18,265 nt of DNA from a virus (Duplodnaviria; Heunggongvirae; Uroviricota; Caudoviricetes). Location of the stretch: the IMG/VR virus record IMGVR_UViG_2630968639_000010; one strand, 5' to 3'. The notes beneath the pieces were generated by a model. That model saw only the letters and a list, made by a program, of their open reading frames with translations. It ran no database searches and was not told the DNA's origin. How positions within the stretch are numbered: the stretch's first letter is position 1; each line of letters starts with the position of its first letter. The position numbers and the translations under genes are program-made. Shown here piece after piece: positions 1 to 16,713 of the stretch.

Positions 1-156
1 TTACTCCTCAGGTTCGTAAACTGTGAAGACAGCGATCTCCGTCTGACCGGTTCGGATTCGCACCTCGCAGAGGTCTTTCCACGTTACCAGTACCGTCACT
101 ATGACGGTTAAACAGATGACGATTAGAGCGAGTAACATCGCCTTTTGCTGCTTCAT
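1..156 (-). CDS. hok: Hok/Gef-family type I toxin (small membrane peptide), 51 aa
   Basis: Translation MKQQKAMLLALIVICLTVIVTVLVTWKDLCEVRIRTGQTEIAVFTVYEPEE closely matches Hok/RelF-type toxins as I remember them. ATG at 156-154, stop at 3-1. The in-frame upstream extension in the ORF track (to 183) is not used. Confidence 0.85.
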   Translation of the reverse strand: MKQQKAMLLALIVICLTVIVTVLVTWKDLCEVRIRTGQTEIAVFTVYEPEE

Positions 157-212
157 AGCCCGCTTCTCCTTGCCTTTCGGCACGTAAGAGGTAACCTATA
201 GGTGCAAGTCAT
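153..212 (-). CDS. mok-like leader ORF (19 codons) coupled to hok
   Basis: Minus-strand ATG at 212-210 preceded by GAGGA. The ORF runs in a different frame from hok and ends in TGA overlapping the hok ATG (ATGA overlap at 156-153), the arrangement known for hok/mok/sok loci. Confidence 0.4.
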   Translation of the reverse strand: MTCTYRLPLTCRKARRSGL

Positions 213-493
213 AGATATATCCTCAGATTAATGTTAAGCGTCTTGCAGGACGCGTAATGTTAACTGGGACTTTTCTCTATCGGCCTTTGGTGGCATGCCC
301 GAGGCAGATAGCCTCAAGCACCCGTAGTCATTCGACCCGTTTTAGATTTCTCAGCCAACTTTATGCTCACAACATATACAAATTTCCCGGTTAAAGCTCA
401 TCATGTTAGATAGTTTTTGCGTACGCACTATTTTTTTGTGTAAACTGCGCAAAGAAGTTTAGCACCCTAAATTGTTAAGGAAAAATTAAGGAA
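213..493. promoter_or_regulatory. hok mRNA leader region (expected Sok antisense RNA target) plus divergent promoter region for the plus-strand operon
   Basis: Noncoding gap between hok/mok and the operon start. The minus-strand sequence resembles hok leader fold-back regions from memory. A possible plus-strand promoter is TTGCGT (417-422) with TAAACT (441-446). Sok boundaries were not determined. Confidence 0.35.
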
Positions 494-5304: not shown

Positions 5305-6429
5305 TTACCCCCTGAAGCCTGGCGGGATCGCACTATCCGGTAACGAGACTGTGTTAACCTGTCGGAGTAACGTCTCAGGTCGAACACCTTTCGGCGCGAA
5401 CAAGCCCTGGTATTCATTGGCGATGCTGTGTCGAATCACCTGCTCAGGTGAAAAACCCTGCTGGCGGAATTTTTCCAGCTCCCGTATCGCCCCGTTAGCG
5501 CCCTGCTCCGTTCGAATCGGTTTTCGCAATGCCCGCCTGAACTGGACCCACTCATGCCAGAGTGTTTCCGGCAACCAATCGGGCAGAGCAACTGACAACG
5601 GGTCGAATTTTTTCTGGCGAACCGCCCCACCGATAACCAGAATTCCCTGCTCGGTGTGCCTTGCGATATCACTGCGCCGCAAGACACATATCCCGGTTTC
5701 AACAGCACCGATTTTGAGCAGTGATTTTTGTCGTGGAGAATTTCGGTCAAGTTCGATCCCACACCGGACACCGTTCCTGTCAGTCACGACGATATCAATC
5801 CGCTCTCCGCAGCCGTCTCCACGCTCTGGTACCGGATACTCACGACAGACATCCAGGCCAGCAGCCTGCAACGCCGCCACCGCAGAATTACAAAATTCTG
5901 CTGCAGTACCGCCAGACAATCTCCCCTCAAGCACTCCAGCCACAAAATCCCGAAACTCCCTTCCGGAAGGGAAGGGTTTGGGATGGGTTAGATCAGTATT
6001 TATATCTTCCTCTTCCTCTGGTAACGCTTTTTGATCCGTTTGTGTAACGCTGCCAGCGTTACCTTTTCGTTTCAGTTCGCGTATTTTTGTTACTCGCTCG
6101 TTTGTAACCGCCCGTTTTTTAGAGCTTTTCCCGTTATGGCGCTCAAAGTTAGGAAGCGACAACACACCATTAGTTTCGACCAACCATCCAACCTGAATTA
6201 ACGCATCAGCAAAACCAGCCATAAAAGTGATGCGATCTATTGCGCTTTTTGTAACGCCGCGAGCGTTACACTCCGCGTTACCGTCTATCATTTGTTGATC
6301 CGCCCATACCCAGAAGCGAATGACTTTCCCTAATGCGGCATCTGGATCAATATTCAGAATCTCAGCAAGCCTGAATATTTCCGGCTTATCCGGCGTAATC
6401 ACTTCGAGCTTTATCCAGTTTGAAGCCAT
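5305..6429 (-). CDS. Phage replication initiation protein (O-like, YdaU-like)
   Basis: 374-aa ORF directly upstream of the DnaC-like loader, with AGGTGA ribosome-binding site. The position is that of the initiator in lambdoid replication modules. Confidence 0.7.
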   Translation of the reverse strand: MASNWIKLEVITPDKPEIFRLAEILNIDPDAALGKVIRFWVWADQQMIDGNAECNARGVTKSAIDRITFMAGFADALIQVGWLVETNGVLSLPNFERHNGKSSKKRAVTNERVTKIRELKRKGNAGSVTQTDQKALPEEEEDINTDLTHPKPFPSGREFRDFVAGVLEGRLSGGTAAEFCNSAVAALQAAGLDVCREYPVPERGDGCGERIDIVVTDRNGVRCGIELDRNSPRQKSLLKIGAVETGICVLRRSDIARHTEQGILVIGGAVRQKKFDPLSVALPDWLPETLWHEWVQFRRALRKPIRTEQGANGAIRELEKFRQQGFSPEQVIRHSIANEYQGLFAPKGVRPETLLRQVNTVSLPDSAIPPGFRG

Positions 6430-8286: not shown

Positions 8287-8417
8287 TATCCTTACAGCAA
8301 ATGACCATTTGTAAGGATATCACCTCACCTGATGTGGTTAAAAGCAGGTCGTAGGCTCCACGATACGGAGCAACTATGAAGCTAATTCCCCTAGCGTTAA
8401 GGGAAAATGAGGTCAAC

Positions 8418-8573
8418 ATGGATACTATCGATCTTGGCAACAACGAATCCCTGGTGTGTGGCGTGTTCCCCAACCAGGATGGAACGTTCACCTCCATGAC
8501 ATATACCAAAAGCAAAACGTTTAAAACCGAAGTTGGCGCGCGTCGCTGGTTGGAGAAGTACACAGTAAGCTAA
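8418..8573 (+). CDS. ydaF: YdaF-like small protein, 51 aa
   Basis: Translation MDTIDLGNNESLVCGVFPNQDGTFTSMTYTKSKTFKTEVGARRWLEKYTVS; GAGG ribosome-binding site. Below the ORF-track size cut-off when taken from its likely start. Confidence 0.6.
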   Translation: MDTIDLGNNESLVCGVFPNQDGTFTSMTYTKSKTFKTEVGARRWLEKYTVS

Positions 8574-9058
8574 CGATTAAAACGTCTGCTCCTACTGTTC
8601 CAGAATAACTTCATAAAGTGGGAGTATTTTTCGGTGACGAGATAATAAGAACAGTTTGCGCCATCACTCTGATGTTGAATGATGCCCTTCCGTTCTAATT
8701 TTTTCATAACCGGGTTACGGCAAGGAGAAGTGATAATAAGATTTCCTGTTTTAAGGAAATCTTTAAATACAGCGATTTCTTTCTCAGATAAACGAAGCAA
8801 TACTCGTTGCTCTGGTAGCAATGAATAATGTTTTTGAATATGTGCTCGCAATCTTGAGAAGGAAATGGCAACCACGAAAGAAAAGGCAAAAACTATAATC
8901 TGAAAGAGCCAGGTTATTTCAGTATAAGCATTAAATACGACAGCAAACTCTTTCGGTATCAGCCAGAGAGTGAGGCCAAAAATGATAATCGTGTACATAA
9001 GTCTTTCGAGTGGCTCTTTAGCAAAAAGTTTCAACAATGGAGTAAATACATCCAACAT
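8570..9058 (-). CDS. sieB: Superinfection exclusion protein B
   Basis: From Met at 9058 (MLDVFTPLLKLF...), hydrophobic membrane segments and a C-terminus matching SieB as I remember it. The track start at 9181 is an unsupported extension. Confidence 0.8.
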   Translation of the reverse strand: MLDVFTPLLKLFAKEPLERLMYTIIIFGLTLWLIPKEFAVVFNAYTEITWLFQIIVFAFSFVVAISFSRLRAHIQKHYSLLPEQRVLLRLSEKEIAVFKDFLKTGNLIITSPCRNPVMKKLERKGIIQHQSDGANCSYYLVTEKYSHFMKLFWNSRSRRFNR

Positions 9059-9735
9059 TTCAATAACTCTCGACTGTAAGGGTATTGAAATGTTAACACA
9101 AGCTCTCGCTGTAGGGGTATAGCCGAGACCACCGAAGCCCGGAGGTGGTGAAATAAAACCGGGCACAACACGAAGGCGCATTTCCGATATCCATAAAGAG
9201 TCGGTCTTGTCTGTTAAATATAAATGGTGGGAGTGCGCCTCCGGTTGTGAATAACGACATTGCTGTGTGTAGTCTTTGGCGGCATCGGTTTTTTCTTGAA
9301 GTTCGACTGATGCCCGCCCTTTTTAAAGTGAATTTTGTGATGCGGTGAATGCGGCTAAGCGCACGCGGAACAGTTAAAAAACTCTATATTAGTTTGGGTG
9401 GTATTTGTATCCGGTGTTAATTGTTAACTGGTTAACGTCACCTGGAGGCACCAGGCACCTCATCAACAAAGTTTATTTAATTATGCGCGAATTAACCGTT
9501 ATTCGTGTGTGGGGTTTCTACACCTGAAATCCACAGCTCTTTAATAATATGGATCGGGCTGTCACGTAAACCACAATTCGGGGTGCCGCCGAATGCCCTG
9601 ATTTATCCGCAGAACCGGATCACAGGGTCGGGATGTGATTTTTTTTGGACAAACCAAACTGGTGGCTTCCGCCGCTTGCGAGAAAACCAAATATAGACTA
9701 AATTATGACTAAGTTTAACGACAAGGCCGTACTTC

Positions 9736-9969
9736 ATGAAAATAGAAACTATCAGCTACATCAAGAAAAACGCAGCCTCACTGGACCTGGCAGAACCCAT
9801 TCTTGTCACGCAGAATGGTGTTCCTGCATACGTAATTGAATCCTATGAGCAGCAACAGGAACGCGAGAACGCTATTGCGTTACTGAAACTTCTCACTATT
9901 TCAGAAAACGACAAGTCTGAAGGTCGCGTGTTTTCAAAAGCACAGTTGCTGGATAGCTTTAACAATTAA
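9736..9969 (+). CDS. Phd/YefM-family antitoxin
   Basis: 77 aa with a Phd/YefM-like N-terminus (LVTQNGVPAYVIESYEQ); immediately upstream of a ParE/RelE-like toxin. Confidence 0.75.
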   Translation: MKIETISYIKKNAASLDLAEPILVTQNGVPAYVIESYEQQQERENAIALLKLLTISENDKSEGRVFSKAQLLDSFNN

Positions 9970-9977
9970 GGTTAACT

Positions 9978-10298
9978 ATGCAGGTTGAATACACACTTAC
10001 TGCCAGAACAAGCCTTGAGCAAATTGCCGACCATCTCCGGAGTAACGACATTGACCCACTCCCTGTAATAGAAGAAATTCTTGAACGATTTGAAACAAGA
10101 GTTACTGCATTCCCGTCCGGATGCCAGTTATGCCCGGAGTTGCTCAAACTTGGCGTGGCGAAATACAGAGAATGCAACACGCCAGAAGGTTACAGAGTGC
10201 TGTACTCTGTAGAAGGGGATGTTATCACTGCACACGCGGTTCTTTCCCAACGCCAGGATATTAAACAGTTACTGTTCAGGCGACTGATCAGAGTTTAG
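9978..10298 (+). CDS. ParE/RelE-family toxin
   Basis: 106 aa; C-terminal YRVLYSVEGDVITAHAVLSQRQD resembles the ParE/RelE fold signature. AGGT ribosome-binding site, 8 nt after the antitoxin stop. Confidence 0.75.
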   Translation: MQVEYTLTARTSLEQIADHLRSNDIDPLPVIEEILERFETRVTAFPSGCQLCPELLKLGVAKYRECNTPEGYRVLYSVEGDVITAHAVLSQRQDIKQLLFRRLIRV

Positions 10299-10614
10299 CA
10301 ATTACACGTTCAGCAACGCCCCTGTTCCCACCAGTTCAGGGGTTTTTGCTTTCTGGCGTTCGGGATATTGACAAAGCAACCTCCATTATTGCAAGATGAC
10401 AGCACTAGAACACATATGCGGTCATCCGCACCCGATAGCCTTGCGGCTTTTTTATGCCTGAAATATGGCACATCCGTACAAAGATCGGGTGGAGAGGCGT
10501 AATACAATACCCGCAAGGGAAATATGCCCGGAGCTTCATATGTGGCTCTAGTTGACACCCGATCACCAGCTACTAACTGGTGACTCGTAACTAAAACACA
10601 TATGGAGGCCAGCT

Positions 10615-11178
10615 ATGGTTGAGCCAATTTCCTGCGTCATCCCTAAAATTTCCATTCACAACAACCGCCCAGTAACGACTTCTGTCGCTATTGCTAATTT
10701 CTTTGGCAAGCAACACAAGAACGTACTTCAGAAAATCCGCGCTCTCGAATGCTCACCAACTTTCATGACGGCTAACTTTTCAGCCATCGCAATATCCACA
10801 AAGGCTGGCTTTGACGAACGCGAAACAGAAGCCTACCAAATCACCAAAAACGGCTTCGTTTTCCTGGTGATGGGCTTCACTGGCAAAAAAGCCGCTGCAT
10901 TCAAAGAGGCCTACATCGCTGAGTTCGACCGCATGGAAGCAGAGCTACGCCAGAATAATACCACTCCCACAAACAAAATCATTCCGGGCGATGGGCGCAC
11001 TCTGGTTGTTCGCTTCGACAAATTCGGCAACGTCGAATTCACTGAAACCGTTCCTGATGGCGCTCTCGTCTGTACCCTGGACACTTTCCGCCTTTATCTG
11101 GAGAAACAGGGCTGGACTCTTGTAAACCGAAGCGCAATTAAAAATATGACCGTCGAGCAGTTGCTGAGTATTAAATAG
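10615..11178 (+). CDS. Rha-family phage regulatory protein
   Basis: N-terminal VTTSVAIANFFGKQHKNVLQKIRAL resembles the Rha N-domain; GGAGG ribosome-binding site 6 nt upstream. Confidence 0.65.
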   Translation: MVEPISCVIPKISIHNNRPVTTSVAIANFFGKQHKNVLQKIRALECSPTFMTANFSAIAISTKAGFDERETEAYQITKNGFVFLVMGFTGKKAAAFKEAYIAEFDRMEAELRQNNTTPTNKIIPGDGRTLVVRFDKFGNVEFTETVPDGALVCTLDTFRLYLEKQGWTLVNRSAIKNMTVEQLLSIK

Positions 11179-11224
11179 TTTTCTGGAATTTTCTTAATAC
11201 GAGAAATTTATTAAGGAGATAATT

Positions 11225-11446
11225 ATGATTGCTCATCACTTCGGAACTGATGAAATACCACGTCAGTGTGTGACTCCTGGCGATTATGTTCTTCATGAAG
11301 GCCGGACATATATTGCCTCGGCAAATAATATTAAAAAGAGGAAACTTTATATCCGTAGCCTGACCACAAAAACATGCATTACTGACTGCATGATCAAAGT
11401 CTTCCTCGGTCGTGATGGTTTACCTGTAAAGGCGGAGTCATGGTGA
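11225..11446 (+). CDS. kilR: KilR-like cell-division inhibitor
   Basis: 73 aa beginning [14 protein letters not shown], matching KilR of Rac from memory; AAGGAG ribosome-binding site. Confidence 0.8.
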
Positions 11447-11616
11447 AGACTAAGAAAATAAAATGTGCTTACCACCTTTGCAATAAAGAAATTGAAGAAA
11501 GCAAAAGCATTAAAACACCACTTCATTTCATGCGTGGAGTTATCCCAACGACGGAAATGAAAAAATATTGTAGTGAAATATGTGCCGAAAAAGACCAGAT
11601 GGCACACGAACTTTAA
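11440..11616 (+). CDS. ydaE: YdaE-like small zinc-binding protein
   Basis: Not in the ORF track (under 60 aa). My translation: [58 protein letters not shown]. Overlaps the kilR stop by 7 nt. Confidence 0.65.
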
Positions 11617-12066: not shown

Positions 12067-15000
12067 ATGAGCACAAAACCACTCTTCCTGTTACGGAAAG
12101 CGAAAAAATCATCCGGTGAACCTGACGTCGTCCTGTGGGCAAGCGACGATTTTGAATCGACCAGTGCCACTCTGGATTACCTGCTCGTTAAGTCAGGTAA
12201 AAAACTGAGCAGCTATTTTAAACCTGTTGCCACGAATTTTCCTGTCGTTAATGACCTTCCCCCTGAAGGTGAGATCGATTTTACCTGGAGTGAACGCTAT
12301 CAACTCAGCAAAGACTCCATGACCTGGGAACTAAAACCGGGAGCAGCGCCAGACGACGTTCACCATCAGGATATTGCACCGGAAATTGAAGAACCGGCGG
12401 GAGGCCAGGAAGAAAACACACAGGCAGACGCTCACGGGGATTGCCAGGATTGCGAAGTCTCTGTATCTACTTTGCGGTTCACACAGCGTCTTCTGCACAT
12501 TTTTACCTATGCGGCCGGGGATCGGAAATACCTGCATCATGCCACCCGAGAACAACGCGAACACATTACTGCTCTTGAGATGGATCAGGAAAACAGCTAT
12601 GTCCAGAATCTGCTGTTGGCCATACGCGGCATGGCAGAACCGACAACTCTGGATAATGCCGCCCTGCTCCGCCTGACTGATGCAATTAAGGCAGTTTTCT
12701 CTATCACGAAAAAACATCAGCCCTATGAATTTAAGAATTTCATTTCAGCCTGGCTGGATACCGAACACATTGATCGCGGTCTTCTGACAAAAGAATGGCA
12801 AAAAGGGAATCGTGTTTCACGCATCACTCGCACGGCTTCCGGTGCTAATGCTGGCGGCGGGAACCTCACCGATCGCGGCGAAGGTTTCGTCCACGATCTG
12901 ACGTCGCTGGCGCGCGATGTAGCCACTGGCGTACTGGCCCGTTCAATGGACGTGGACATCTATAACCTTCATCCGGCACACGCGAAACGCATTGAGGAAA
13001 TTATCGCTCAAAATAAACCGCCCTTTTCTGTTTTCCGCGACAAATTCATCACCATGCCTGGCGGGCTGGATTATTCACGCGCCATCGTGGTTGCGTCCGT
13101 GAAAGAAGCACCAATTGGTATCGAGGTCATCCCCGCGCACGTCACTGAATATCTGAACAAAGTACTGACTGAAACCGATCATGCCAACCCTGATCCGGAA
13201 ATCGTGGATATTGCCTGCGGTCGCTCCTCTGCCCCGATGCCGCAGCGTGTAACAGAAGAAGGAAAACAGGATGATGAAGAAAAACTACAACCATCTGGAA
13301 CAATGGCAGATGAACAGGCAACGGCTGAAACCATAGAACCGGACGCAACTGAACATCATCAGGACACGCAGCCGCTGGATGCTCAGTCACAGGTAAACCC
13401 TGTTGATGCGGAATACCAGAAAAAGCGGGCAGAACTCCATGAAGCCAGGAAAAACATTCCGCCCAAAAATCCTGTCGATGCAGACAAATTGCTGGCGGCC
13501 TCGCGTGGTGAGTTCGTTGAAGGGATTAGCGACCCGAACGATCCGAAATGGGTTAAGGGGATCCAGACTCGCGATTCTGTGTACCAGAACCAGCCAGAAA
13601 CGGAACAAAACACGCCAGAAACTGAAAAAACTAGCCCGGATGTGAAACAACCTGAGCCAGTAGTGCAACATGAACCGGAAAAAGTCTGCAATGCCTGCGG
13701 TCAGACTGGCGGGGATAGCTGCCCTGACTGTGCTGTGGTAATAGGCGACGCCACGTATCAGGAAACCTTTAATGAAGAAAATCTGGATGAATCTCAGGAA
13801 AAAGATCCGGAGGAAATGGAAGGCGCTGAACATCTGCACAAGGAGAACGCTGGCAGCGATCCGCATCACAATTGCAGTGATGAAACTGGTGAAGCGTCAG
13901 CTCCTGTAGCAATTGAAATCATGTGGCCATCATATTTCGAACCAGGCCGCTATGAAAACCTCCCGAACGAGGTTTATCACTCTGCCAATGGAATAAGCAG
14001 CACAATGCTGAAGGATGCTCGTATCAGCCTGATGTATTACCACGGACGGCACATTGCCGGAACTATTCCGAGTGAGGAAAGTGATGCATTGCTGCGTGGG
14101 CGGATCATTCACAGCTATGTTCTGGAAACGGATAAATTCGCTGATGAATATGCTATTCCGGTACCGGTTCCTGAACATGTGGTTACCACTTCTCACGAAC
14201 TGATCGCCATTATCAAAAAACACAATGCCAGTCTGCCAGCACTGATGACACCAGAGCAGATGAAAGAGTGGATCGAAAGCTACAACAGCACTCTTATCCA
14301 GCCACTGTCGGTAAGTGCTGGAGCCGAAGAAACAGGCATCCTTTACGGTTCGCTTCCGGTGGAATTCCAGCGTATTCCGGAGGAGGAGAAACATACTGCA
14401 TCGGCAATGAAAGCCTGCATTAGAGAATACAATGCAAGCCTCCCTCCTCTATTGAAAACCAGTGGAACACGGGAGCAACTTCTGGAGCAAATTGAAACTA
14501 TAGATCCAGAACTGGCGAAAAAAGAACGTGCTAAATCTTTGCCTTACAACATCAGTGGCACGAAAGAGCAATTAACCGAAATCGCCCGGAAAATTCGCCC
14601 GGAACTGGTTACCCTGGAGGACTGGCAAAAACGCCAGCAAGAAGAAAACGCCGGGAAAACGTTTATCAGTTCAGATATGTATGAACAGGCAAAAAATATT
14701 CACGCTGCACTGCAAAACAATACTGATGCAGCAAGGCTACTCAACCACCCGGATCGCAAATCTGAAATCAGCTATTTCGGGTTTGATGAAGAAACCGGGC
14801 TGGAAATCAGGGTCCGTCCTGATATCGAAATCCGACTGCCATACGAAAGCATTTGCGCCGACGTGAAGTCAGTCAGCCTCGGTTATGTGCGACAGGAACG
14901 ACTGAAAGATCGCCTGCACCGTGAAATTATTGAGCGTGATTATCACCTCAGCGCAGCAATGTATTGCGATGTGGCAAACCTGGACAAATTTTTCTGGATC

Positions 15001-15210
15001 TTCGTCAACAAAGATGCTGGCTATCACTGGGTGGCAGTCGTGGAAGCCTCGCAGGAACTCCTGGAACTTGGTCGACAGGAATATCGCCGGACGCTACGAC
15101 AGATAAACGAAGCCCTGGAGACAAACAACTGGCCAGCACCGATTACCGAAAGTTATACCGACGAATTAAACGACTTTGATCTTCGTCGTCTTGAAGCACT
15201 GAGCATCTGA
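12067..15210 (+). CDS. recE: RecE-like exonuclease VIII (PD-(D/E)xK 5'-3' dsDNA exonuclease) with an extra internal segment
   Basis: N-terminus [26 protein letters not shown] and a C-terminal core (RVRPDIEIR ... CADVKSV ... YHLSAAMY ... NNWPAP) match RecE from memory. 1047 aa, longer than the K-12 protein as I remember it. Confidence 0.8.
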
Positions 15211-16337: not shown

Positions 16338-16532
16338 ATGCGGTATGAAAAAGTCAAACCATACCCTTTTTGTGGTTGTCCATCAGTAACGGTGAAAGCC
16401 ATTTCAGGATATTACCGCGCGAAGTGTAACGGATGCGAATCCCGAACCGGCTATGGTGGAAGTGAAAAAGAAGCACTCGAAAGATGGAATAAACGAACTA
16501 CTGGAAATAATAATGGAGGTGTTCATGTATAA
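16338..16532 (+). CDS. ralR: Lar/RalR restriction-alleviation protein
   Basis: MRYEKVKPYPFCGCPSVTVKAISGYYRAKCNGCESRTGYGGSEKEALERWNKR matches the Lar family from memory. Confidence 0.8.
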   Translation: MRYEKVKPYPFCGCPSVTVKAISGYYRAKCNGCESRTGYGGSEKEALERWNKRTTGNNNGGVHV

Positions 16533-16713
16533 AATTACCGCCACTATTGAAAAGGAAGGAGGTTCTCCTACCAGCTGGACAAGGTACTCAACAACAAAGT
16601 TAACCAAATCGGAATGCGAAAAAATGCTCTCAGGGAAAAAAGAAGCTGGTGTTTCCAGAGAGCAGAAAGTAAAACTTATAAATTTTAATTGCGAGAAACT
16701 TCAATCTTCGTGA
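16525..16713 (+). CDS. ydaC: YdaC-like small protein
   Basis: ATG at 16525 preceded by GGAGG and overlapping the lar stop; begins MYKITATIEKEGG. Confidence 0.65.
   Translation: MYKITATIEKEGGSPTSWTRYSTTKLTKSECEKMLSGKKEAGVSREQKVKLINFNCEKLQSS

Follow-up and report, generated by a model that had tools for sequence, protein, structure and literature searches.

The c4 RNA of phage P1 silences the antirepressor of that phage, and the c4-icd-ant layout of P1 and P7 was reportedly described by Citron and Schuster in 1990. In the immI regions of these two phages a processed, transfer RNA (tRNA)-like RNA is derived from the transcript of its own target, its segments a' and b' are complementary to sites a1 and b1 upstream and to sites a2 and b2 on a ribosome-binding site, a few covarying bases set the specificity, and the target gene leads to the antirepressor. 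A comparable order of upstream target with terminator, antisense RNA, downstream target and antirepressor-type gene is found for CI of phage P4 (with seqA and seqC) and for IsrK-STnc1160-orf45-anrP of Salmonella Gifsy-1 (PMC4825925); the effect of P4 CI is transcription termination, and that in Gifsy-1 is activation. Here we describe a locus of similar architecture in a stretch of 18,265 nucleotides from a virus of the Caudoviricetes (IMG/VR record IMGVR_UViG_2630968639_000010), hereafter the window, which is a Rac-like prophage integrated beside ttcA. Between sieB and kilR this prophage carries an accessory island with a toxin-antitoxin cassette, an RNA leader and the gene rha. We consider it likely that these are three self-contained modules, and that the leader is an antisense switch of the c4, CI and IsrK kind that controls rha.

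The RNA leader and its covarying sites

The leader lies between the toxin gene and rha and is composed of the following elements.

10368-10373 / 10392-10397, plus strand: candidate leader promoter, TTGACA-18 nt-CAAGAT, on the 5' border of the conserved module
10404-10418, plus strand: upstream target-like sites b1 (ACTAGA, 10404-10409) and a1 (CACATATG, 10411-10418), complementary to b' and a'
10418-10453, plus strand: GCGG-N4-CCGC hairpin, then a terminator-like GCGG stem with T-run, from sequence and folds
10483-10572, plus strand: small RNA (sRNA) of the sRNA-Xcc1 family (Rfam RF02221: 65.8 bits, gathering score 53, all 87 model positions covered)
10563-10569 and 10577-10583, plus strand: arms of a hairpin, TCACCAG-N7-CTGGTGA, overlapping the ACCA tail of the sRNA
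10589-10608, plus strand: downstream targets b2 (AACTAAAAC; AACTAA) and a2 (CACATATG, 10597-10604) and the Shine-Dalgarno sequence GGAGG (10604-10608), ahead of the ATG at 10615

The sRNA folds into a 9-bp closing stem around two hairpins, in agreement with the Rfam model (z -3.1). The second hairpin carries a' (CATATGTG, 10537-10544) in its loop, and the linker carries b' (TCTAGT, 10547-10552). The acceptor-like closing stem with ACCA at the 3' end would be in keeping with release from the leader transcript by RNase P. ARAGORN found no tRNA or transfer-messenger RNA, and the sRNA is therefore not a tRNA gene. Sites a' and a2 are exact reverse complements, and the 8-mer occurs in the window only at a1, a' and a2.

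The core of hairpin 1 (AAUACAAUACCCGNAAGGG, 10501-10519), which has a GNAA tetraloop and an internal loop, is letter-identical in at least 120 loci (L136-L255) that, among the matches listed, span Gamma-, Beta-, Alpha- and Deltaproteobacteria, Acidobacteria, Bacteroidota and Planctomycetia. Conservation of this depth suggests a universal cellular partner.

The sequence at 10397-10597 is about 87% identical to DNA that lies 17 nt upstream of Ant antirepressor genes, and the leader precedes such genes in about 185 Escherichia coli genomes, including O157:H7 and O104:H4 prophages. When five E. coli leaders are aligned, three short patches vary between the leaders and agree within each of them. 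In every one of the five, a1 equals a2 and is the reverse complement of a', and four different 'a' sequences are represented, that of the window being CACATATG/CATATGTG/CACATATG (a1/a'/a2) and the other three specificities AGTTAA, TTCAAA and TTACAA. A second set of sites, less variable than the first, consists of b1 ACTAGA, b' TCTAGT and b2 AACTAA.

For a wider test, two collections were scanned with the conserved core AATACAATACCCGNAAGGG, and complementarity was assessed by permutation on position-restricted zones; variable spacing prevents a reliable column-by-column alignment of a' with a2. In both collections the loop is complementary to the flanking sites of its own leader far more often than to those of mismatched pairs [complementarity of at least 7 nt in viral contigs, 98 unique leaders and 42 specificities: a':a2 60% vs 2.7% of mismatched pairs, a':a1 75% vs 4.7%; in genomes of many phyla, 115 leaders and 51 specificities: a':a2 52% vs 2.5%, a':a1 60% vs 6.2%]. 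The two sets together hold about 100 specificities over 213 leaders, and the genomic set is an independent replicate of the viral one. In 48 of 55 cases a2 stops 8-11 nt short of the start codon, and in 52 of 59 it is in contact with a motif that resembles a Shine-Dalgarno sequence.

The genes that follow the viral leaders (59 scanned) encode Bro-N (19), KilA-N (18), P22 antirepressor (7-14), pRha (7), AntA (4) and ORF6N (1) proteins, and those behind the genomic leaders belong to like families, with SymE toxins added in 9 of 72. The position of sRNA-Xcc1 upstream of symE in Xanthomonas was noted earlier by a preprint, and in enterohaemorrhagic E. coli EDL933 the RNA is abundant and barely covered by ribosomes (PMC5331693). 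The orthologous rha genes of an O157-type Rac prophage (L002) and of strain A34 (L004) are preceded instead by isrK and C4, which follow a like a1/a'/a2 logic. Because these sister prophages use isrK and C4 at this very locus, we regard the sRNA-Xcc1 leader as a functional replacement of that pair.

This covariation, together with the precedents of P1 c4, P4 CI and Gifsy-1 IsrK, is the basis of the mechanism that we propose. A transcript from the promoter at about 10368-10397 would run through b1-a1, the terminator-like hairpins, the tRNA-like sRNA-Xcc1 and b2-a2 on the Shine-Dalgarno sequence of rha, and a stable sRNA, presumably processed from this transcript as in P1 and P7, would pair through a'b' with b2a2 and block ribosome binding to rha. 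Pairing of a'b' with b1a1 on the nascent leader could shift the GCGG/CCGC/GCGG-T-run alternatives (10418-10453) towards termination, which would limit transcription of the leader. Alternatively, a short b1a1 RNA might titrate the sRNA, and rha would then be switched on; the direction in which the sRNA regulates rha is uncertain. The hypervariable 'a' of 6-9 nt would set specificity, as between P1 and P7.

By its sequence, rha very probably has a promoter of its own, and TTGACA (10368-10373) with CAAGAT is the likely site. The stretch TTGACAAA is invariant in the five leaders at the point where unrelated upstream DNA begins to align, and the -10 hexamer reads CATACT in the ant leaders of Stx phages. 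The hairpin set at 10418-10453, which may act as a pair of alternatives, takes the place of the IsrK/SeqA terminator in the known systems, and its pattern recurs across leaders.

Several observations weigh against a repressing switch of this design. In the window the -10 of the leader promoter is weak (3/6 matches), and the terminator stem is short and its fold no better than that of shuffles (z -0.8). The Rfam models for C4 (RF01695) and isrK (RF01394), which do match the sister loci L002 and L004, find nothing in 9000-11300 at E values up to 5, so that the tie to c4 is one of architecture and not of homology. When the whole leader is folded, the minimum-free-energy structure has b1a1 paired in cis with a'b' and the Shine-Dalgarno sequence unpaired, so that the switch could be ON at rest and not OFF; in the centroid structure a'b' is paired with b2a2. 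The short IsrK RNA of Gifsy-1 has been shown to activate, through orf45 coupling (PMC4825925).

The locus also differs from each of its models. Compared with P1 and P7, the RNA belongs to another family, and a2 lies directly on the Shine-Dalgarno sequence of rha with no icd-like leader open reading frame (ORF) present; compared with P4 and Gifsy-1, both RNA parts come from another structural family. The match to sRNA-Xcc1, known as an integron sRNA of Xanthomonas campestris, is full-length and above the gathering score. The family has been described as a virulence-regulated, trans-acting sRNA; in the literature searched, the coverage of which is incomplete, neither its flanking covarying targets and their tie to antirepressor and SymE genes nor a reading of it as a c4/CI-like switch of hypervariable specificity came up, so that a prior description is possible. 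The tRNA-mimicking switches of a synthetic-biology paper (PMC7689881) proved unrelated.

Two other readings of the leader have to be weighed against an antisense switch. The literature treats sRNA-Xcc1 as a virulence-linked trans-acting sRNA, proposed as such for Xanthomonas and Xylella (PMC2996969; PMC12189769), and the RNA could likewise be a free-standing regulator of host genes that stands before rha incidentally. We find this quite improbable, since in about 100 specificities the variable loop changes in step with both sites that flank it, one of these sites falls on a downstream Shine-Dalgarno sequence, and the 8-mer recurs nowhere else in the window; host targets may still be an additional role. 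The second reading is that of the first-pass annotation, in which a 7-bp inverted repeat just upstream of rha was taken as a candidate operator and a nearby TTGACA (10552-10557) as part of a candidate promoter. Both elements exist where they were seen, apart from the left edge of the repeat, which lies one base away at 10563 (the spacer is 7 nt), and TTGACA occurs twice in 316 bp against an expectation of 0.08. As a protein operator and the -35 element of a rha promoter, however, they make up the least probable of the alternatives considered in this study. At spacings of 15-19 the best -10 reaches only 2/6, the consensus scan places no promoter there, and this TTGACA falls on the 3' side of the closing stem of the full-length sRNA-Xcc1 match.

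The repeat is better read as an RNA hairpin, since its pairing is conserved across relatives and its palindromic sequence is not: the two arms read CAACCAG/CTGGTTG in WG5 and GCCC/GGGC or the like in others. Of the 63 leaders with a locatable 3' end, 84% have a hairpin in that place, with a sequence that varies between leaders, and the C4 RNA of L002 has a comparable 3' hairpin. In the window the hairpin (10563-10583) has a folding energy of -12.4 kcal/mol (z -4.5). A perfect 7-bp repeat of such kind is within chance, being present in 11% of shuffles of 10299-10614, and we accept it as real because of these compensatory changes in related leaders. The consensus scan for promoters and terminators, which covered 8900-11500, is itself uninformative, because it returned fewer promoter-like sites than shuffles and missed every element discussed here.

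The rha gene and its annotation

The gene behind the leader is predicted to encode a Rha-family regulator of antirepressor type.

10615-11178, plus strand: rha, pRha-domain regulator or antirepressor-type gene, 187 amino acids (aa) (PF09669, TIGR02681)

The product matches Phage_pRha (PF09669) over the whole profile (90.8 bits, cut-off 29.9) and TIGR02681 (87.4 bits, cut-off 45.95), its PHROG matches are to Rha-like and anti-repressor families, and it shares 81% identity with the last 178 aa of the O157-type protein. ORFs of 184-185 aa stand behind a like leader in VL40 and in Salmonella. The public annotation, produced by the Prokaryotic Genome Annotation Pipeline (PGAP), flags rha as a pseudogene ("incomplete; missing N-terminus"), a call that arises because sister prophages carry annotated genes of 268-282 aa, and the first-pass annotation was closer to the mark in calling the ORF as a gene.

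If the public call were right, rha would be a dead remnant that lost its N-terminus when the toxin-antitoxin cassette and the leader DNA were inserted, and the long sister genes, the extra N-terminal part of which hits Pfam Phage_ASH, would represent the complete form. We hold this to be very improbable, because the extra part holds RNA genes. In L002 and L004 both isrK and C4 lie inside it, above Rfam gathering scores (the "Ash" part that overlaps them is at L002:3404-3700 and L004:5092-5390), and in L002 a promoter-like TTGAAA-17-TATAGT stands just before isrK, an a1 site (TCACTAGAG) lies in isrK with its complement in the C4 loop, and a second copy of TCACTAGAG is fused to AGAGG and an in-frame ATG. 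Translation from this internal ATG gives MATIPTLSHPDVTIENG..., which is essentially the N-terminus of the Rha of VL40 (MATIPALSH...) and Salmonella (MAIIPALSH...).

Read in the annotated frame, the extension also evolves neutrally. In the comparison of L002 with L004 the ratio of nonsynonymous to synonymous differences (pN/pS) is 0.94 in the extension, with differences at the three codon positions of 18/24/20, and 0.37 in the Rha part, with 36/22/52. The ORF in the window keeps the whole pRha domain and has GGAGG 6 nt ahead of its ATG, and its ratio of nonsynonymous to synonymous substitution rates (dN/dS) is 0.21-0.29. Judged on these features, the 187-aa ORF is the full rha gene. Pfam Phage_ASH and PHROG 995/821 cover the Ash/isrK-C4 region and may therefore rest in part on translated RNA leaders. 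The correction concerns a recurrent error, in which RNA leaders are translated as "Ash" N-termini and intact rha genes are called pseudogenes.

The toxin-antitoxin cassette

The closest characterised relative of the gene pair upstream of the leader is PfiT/PfiA of the filamentous Pseudomonas aeruginosa prophage Pf4, in which PfiT holds down the output of its own phage and contributes to immunity (PMC7264888). The corresponding features of the window are as follows.

9676-9704, plus strand: candidate cassette promoter, TTGCGA-17 nt-TAAATT, found by reading the sequence
9736-9969, plus strand: antitoxin, PfiA-like, Phd/YefM family, 77 aa (Pfam PF02604, PDB 9w3a_E, phrog_2268)
9978-10298, plus strand: toxin, PfiT-like, ParE superfamily, 106 aa (Pfam PF05016, PDB PfiT, AlphaFold2/Foldseek)
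10312-10350, plus strand: intrinsic terminator of the cassette, GC-rich stem CCCCTG/CAGGGG followed by a T-run

The antitoxin matches PhdYeFM_antitox (PF02604) at 30.1 bits against a cut-off of 29.8, the PHROG antitoxin family phrog_2268, and PfiA (PDB 9w3a chain E) with an E value of 7.9e-22 and about 65% identity over residues 1-67. PfiA is phosphorylated at Thr5 (PMC13048266), and the antitoxin keeps this residue, with MKIET aligned to MRVET of PfiA. The toxin matches ParE_toxin (PF05016) over profile positions 1-88 of 89 (34 bits, cut-off 23), its match to the NCBIfam RelE_StbE profile falls under the cut-off of that profile, and it is 29% identical to PfiT in the PDB (E 2e-7), with A9 aligned to A12, a residue essential for the toxicity of PfiT (PMC13048266).

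An AlphaFold2 model of the toxin (38 homologues) has a mean predicted local distance difference test (pLDDT) score of 87.6 and a predicted C-terminal helix at 95-105, with only 55-68 for the last 12 or so residues. In Foldseek the best match of the model is PfiT [template modelling (TM) score 0.87, root mean square deviation 1.8 A], followed by ParE2, ParE1 and PaParE (TM 0.62-0.71) and by the ribonucleases RelE, YoeB, HigB and YafQ (0.45-0.58). Because PfiT and then the ParE proteins rank above the RelE-type ribonucleases, the toxin is placed in the PfiT-like part of the ParE branch.

The two genes are co-oriented and 8 nt apart, which is the layout of a type II toxin-antitoxin operon, and both are under purifying selection (dN/dS 0.09-0.16 for the antitoxin and 0.10-0.13 for the toxin). 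The cassette terminator has a folding energy of -17.6 kcal/mol (z -4.3), and homology to the A34 cassette stops at 10352, right past it. TTGCGA/TAAATT may be the cassette promoter; its hexamer regions are conserved in A34 and VL40 and were missed by the consensus scan. Upstream of the antitoxin gene only direct GACTAA repeats are visible by eye. From its sequence and the modelled fold, the pair appears to be a self-contained, moron-like cassette of the PfiA/PfiT type with a ParE-superfamily toxin.

A hairpin, ATCACA/TGTGAT with eight T (9619-9647), lies just upstream of the candidate promoter; its fold is no better than that of shuffles (z -1.2), and it could serve as an insulator of the cassette.

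The pair shares with PfiT/PfiA the order of antitoxin then toxin, the location in a prophage, the C-terminal helix (here predicted) and the conserved alanine. It differs in that its host phage is of the lambdoid, Rac type of enterobacteria and not an inovirus, its toxin is 9 aa shorter, and no partner kinase system is known for the pair in this prophage. Less in keeping with a PfiA-type system, a search of 9400-9760 for inverted repeats of at least 8 bp did not find a PfiA-like palindromic operator upstream of the antitoxin, and PADLOC gave no defence-system match for the pair. ParE/ParD and ParE2/PaaA2 share the ParE fold of the toxin (TM 0.62-0.71), relatives of which are found at 60-65% identity on conjugative plasmids; the antitoxin here is of the Phd/YefM type and not ParD (ribbon-helix-helix) or PaaA2.

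The cassette is present in 7 of 5,426 complete E. coli genomes, and a Salmonella Rac-like prophage carries it in a matching layout. A tblastn search with the toxin against 50,697 phage records gave zero matches. The type is found mainly on plasmids: relatives with at most 65% identity occur in 193 plasmid records (Yersinia pestis, Serratia, Enterobacter, Pseudomonas), one of them (62% identical) directly after traI on conjugative plasmids, and by analogy these plasmid relatives suggest a role in maintenance. DNA binding would fall to the N-terminal Phd-like domain of the antitoxin, and neutralisation of the predicted toxin to its C-terminal part; judging from PfiT/PfiA and the plasmid relatives, the cassette may make loss of the prophage costly, tune the development of the prophage itself, or do both.

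The pair might, on the other hand, be chiefly an anti-phage abortive-infection system rather than a stabiliser or regulator of its own prophage. The cassette is moron-like and adjoins sieB, a superinfection exclusion gene, and defence genes are common in prophages; yet no PADLOC model fits it, its nearest studied relative acts on the production and immunity of its own phage (PMC7264888), and its closest relatives outside prophages are plasmid maintenance loci by traI, so that we think this rather unlikely. Stabilisation and phage interference, the roles proposed in the first-pass annotation, would both fit PfiT/PfiA of Pf4 (PMC7264888).

Elsewhere in the prophage a RalA RNA antitoxin, with ralR nearby, and a sok-like RNA are found at 16531-16709 (minus strand) and 151-323 (minus strand), above Rfam gathering thresholds. 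Counted with the cassette, the prophage therefore has at least three modules of toxin-antitoxin type.

The island in its genomic setting

Five complete E. coli genomes, ETEC1746 and STEC306-308 among them, match positions 9060-11230 of the window at 100% identity. In BLAST comparisons homology to K-12 Rac covers 8414-9478 and resumes from 11215, and because of this break the 1,736 bp in between are extra DNA relative to K-12 Rac, in which the matching interval has only the sRNA gene kilS.

9479-11214, plus strand: accessory island of three modules (toxin-antitoxin cassette, RNA leader, rha), delimited by BLAST against K-12

The three ORFs between sieB and kilR, their families and their absence from K-12 Rac had been recognised in the first-pass annotation, and the Pfam matches and the homology gap agree with it on each count. 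The placement of the genes at the head of an early-left operon is doubtful, because same-strand genes (homologues of racR and ydaF) and the KilS terminator lie upstream, the cassette ends in a terminator, and rha very probably has its own promoter. The flanking genes are confirmed as sieB (8570-9058, minus strand) and kilR (11225-11446), with ydaE, recE and recT also flanking.

The same slot holds isrK-C4-rha in the O157-type Rac prophage (L002) and the toxin-antitoxin pair with isrK-C4-rha in strain A34 (L004), and the layout of the window is repeated in VL40 (L005) and in the Salmonella prophage (L129). Flanking repeats or transposon ends were sought at the island junctions, and only a loose TTTATT(T)AA similarity was found at both. 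The K-12 sequence at the site is not the product of a simple deletion. Two further ORFs were considered and dropped, one of 63 aa (9505-9696) and one of 82 aa on the minus strand (10310-10558), the latter overlapping the RNA leader and the terminator.

Other features of the prophage were observed alongside the island. A KilS homologue with 93% identity to that of K-12 lies at 9227-9324, on the strand of kilR and upstream of the cassette, and also scores as DicF-like (37 bits, under the gathering score); it is followed on the same strand by an STnc100-like element at 9321-9496 (38.5 bits, under the gathering score). In strain A34 a tRNA-like gene stands in the place of KilS (L004:3903-3977; Rfam tRNA 44 bits, tRNA-OTHER in PGAP). 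The recE ORF (12067-15210) encodes 1,047 aa against 866 aa in K-12 (coding sequence of 2,601 bp), the surplus length being in the acidic, low-complexity N-terminal half. In ETEC1746, the identical genome, PGAP annotates a ydaU-like replication gene (5305-6429, minus strand) as two partial pseudogenes, and the prophage may therefore be replication-defective.

The gene pair adds a rare, otherwise ordinary example to the PfiT/PfiA kind, a family that was solved recently, and shows a system of this type carried by a lambdoid prophage, in E. coli and in Salmonella, where effects on prophage stability and induction are open to test in a tractable host; rha is an ordinary Rha gene. The RNA leader is the more useful outcome. 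It explains antirepressor-type genes that sit in prophages with promoters of their own, and it offers a concrete, testable mechanism for an Rfam family so far regarded as a virulence sRNA whose mode of action was not known, in leaders that display about 100 natural orthogonal specificities. As a wider proposal, for which we judge the case evenly balanced, sRNA-Xcc1 would add a third class of structure to the phage "RNA immunity" elements, one so far unrecognised as such and with no sequence relationship to P1 c4/isrK or to P4 CI; it would have a programmable loop of 6-9 nt matched to two flanking sites, silence antirepressor-type genes and SymE toxins, and be interchangeable with isrK-C4 before rha in Rac-like prophages. 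If this is true, such elements are spread over Proteobacteria, Acidobacteria, Bacteroidota and other phyla, and many annotated "Ash-Rha" fusions and "rha pseudogenes" would be annotation artefacts.

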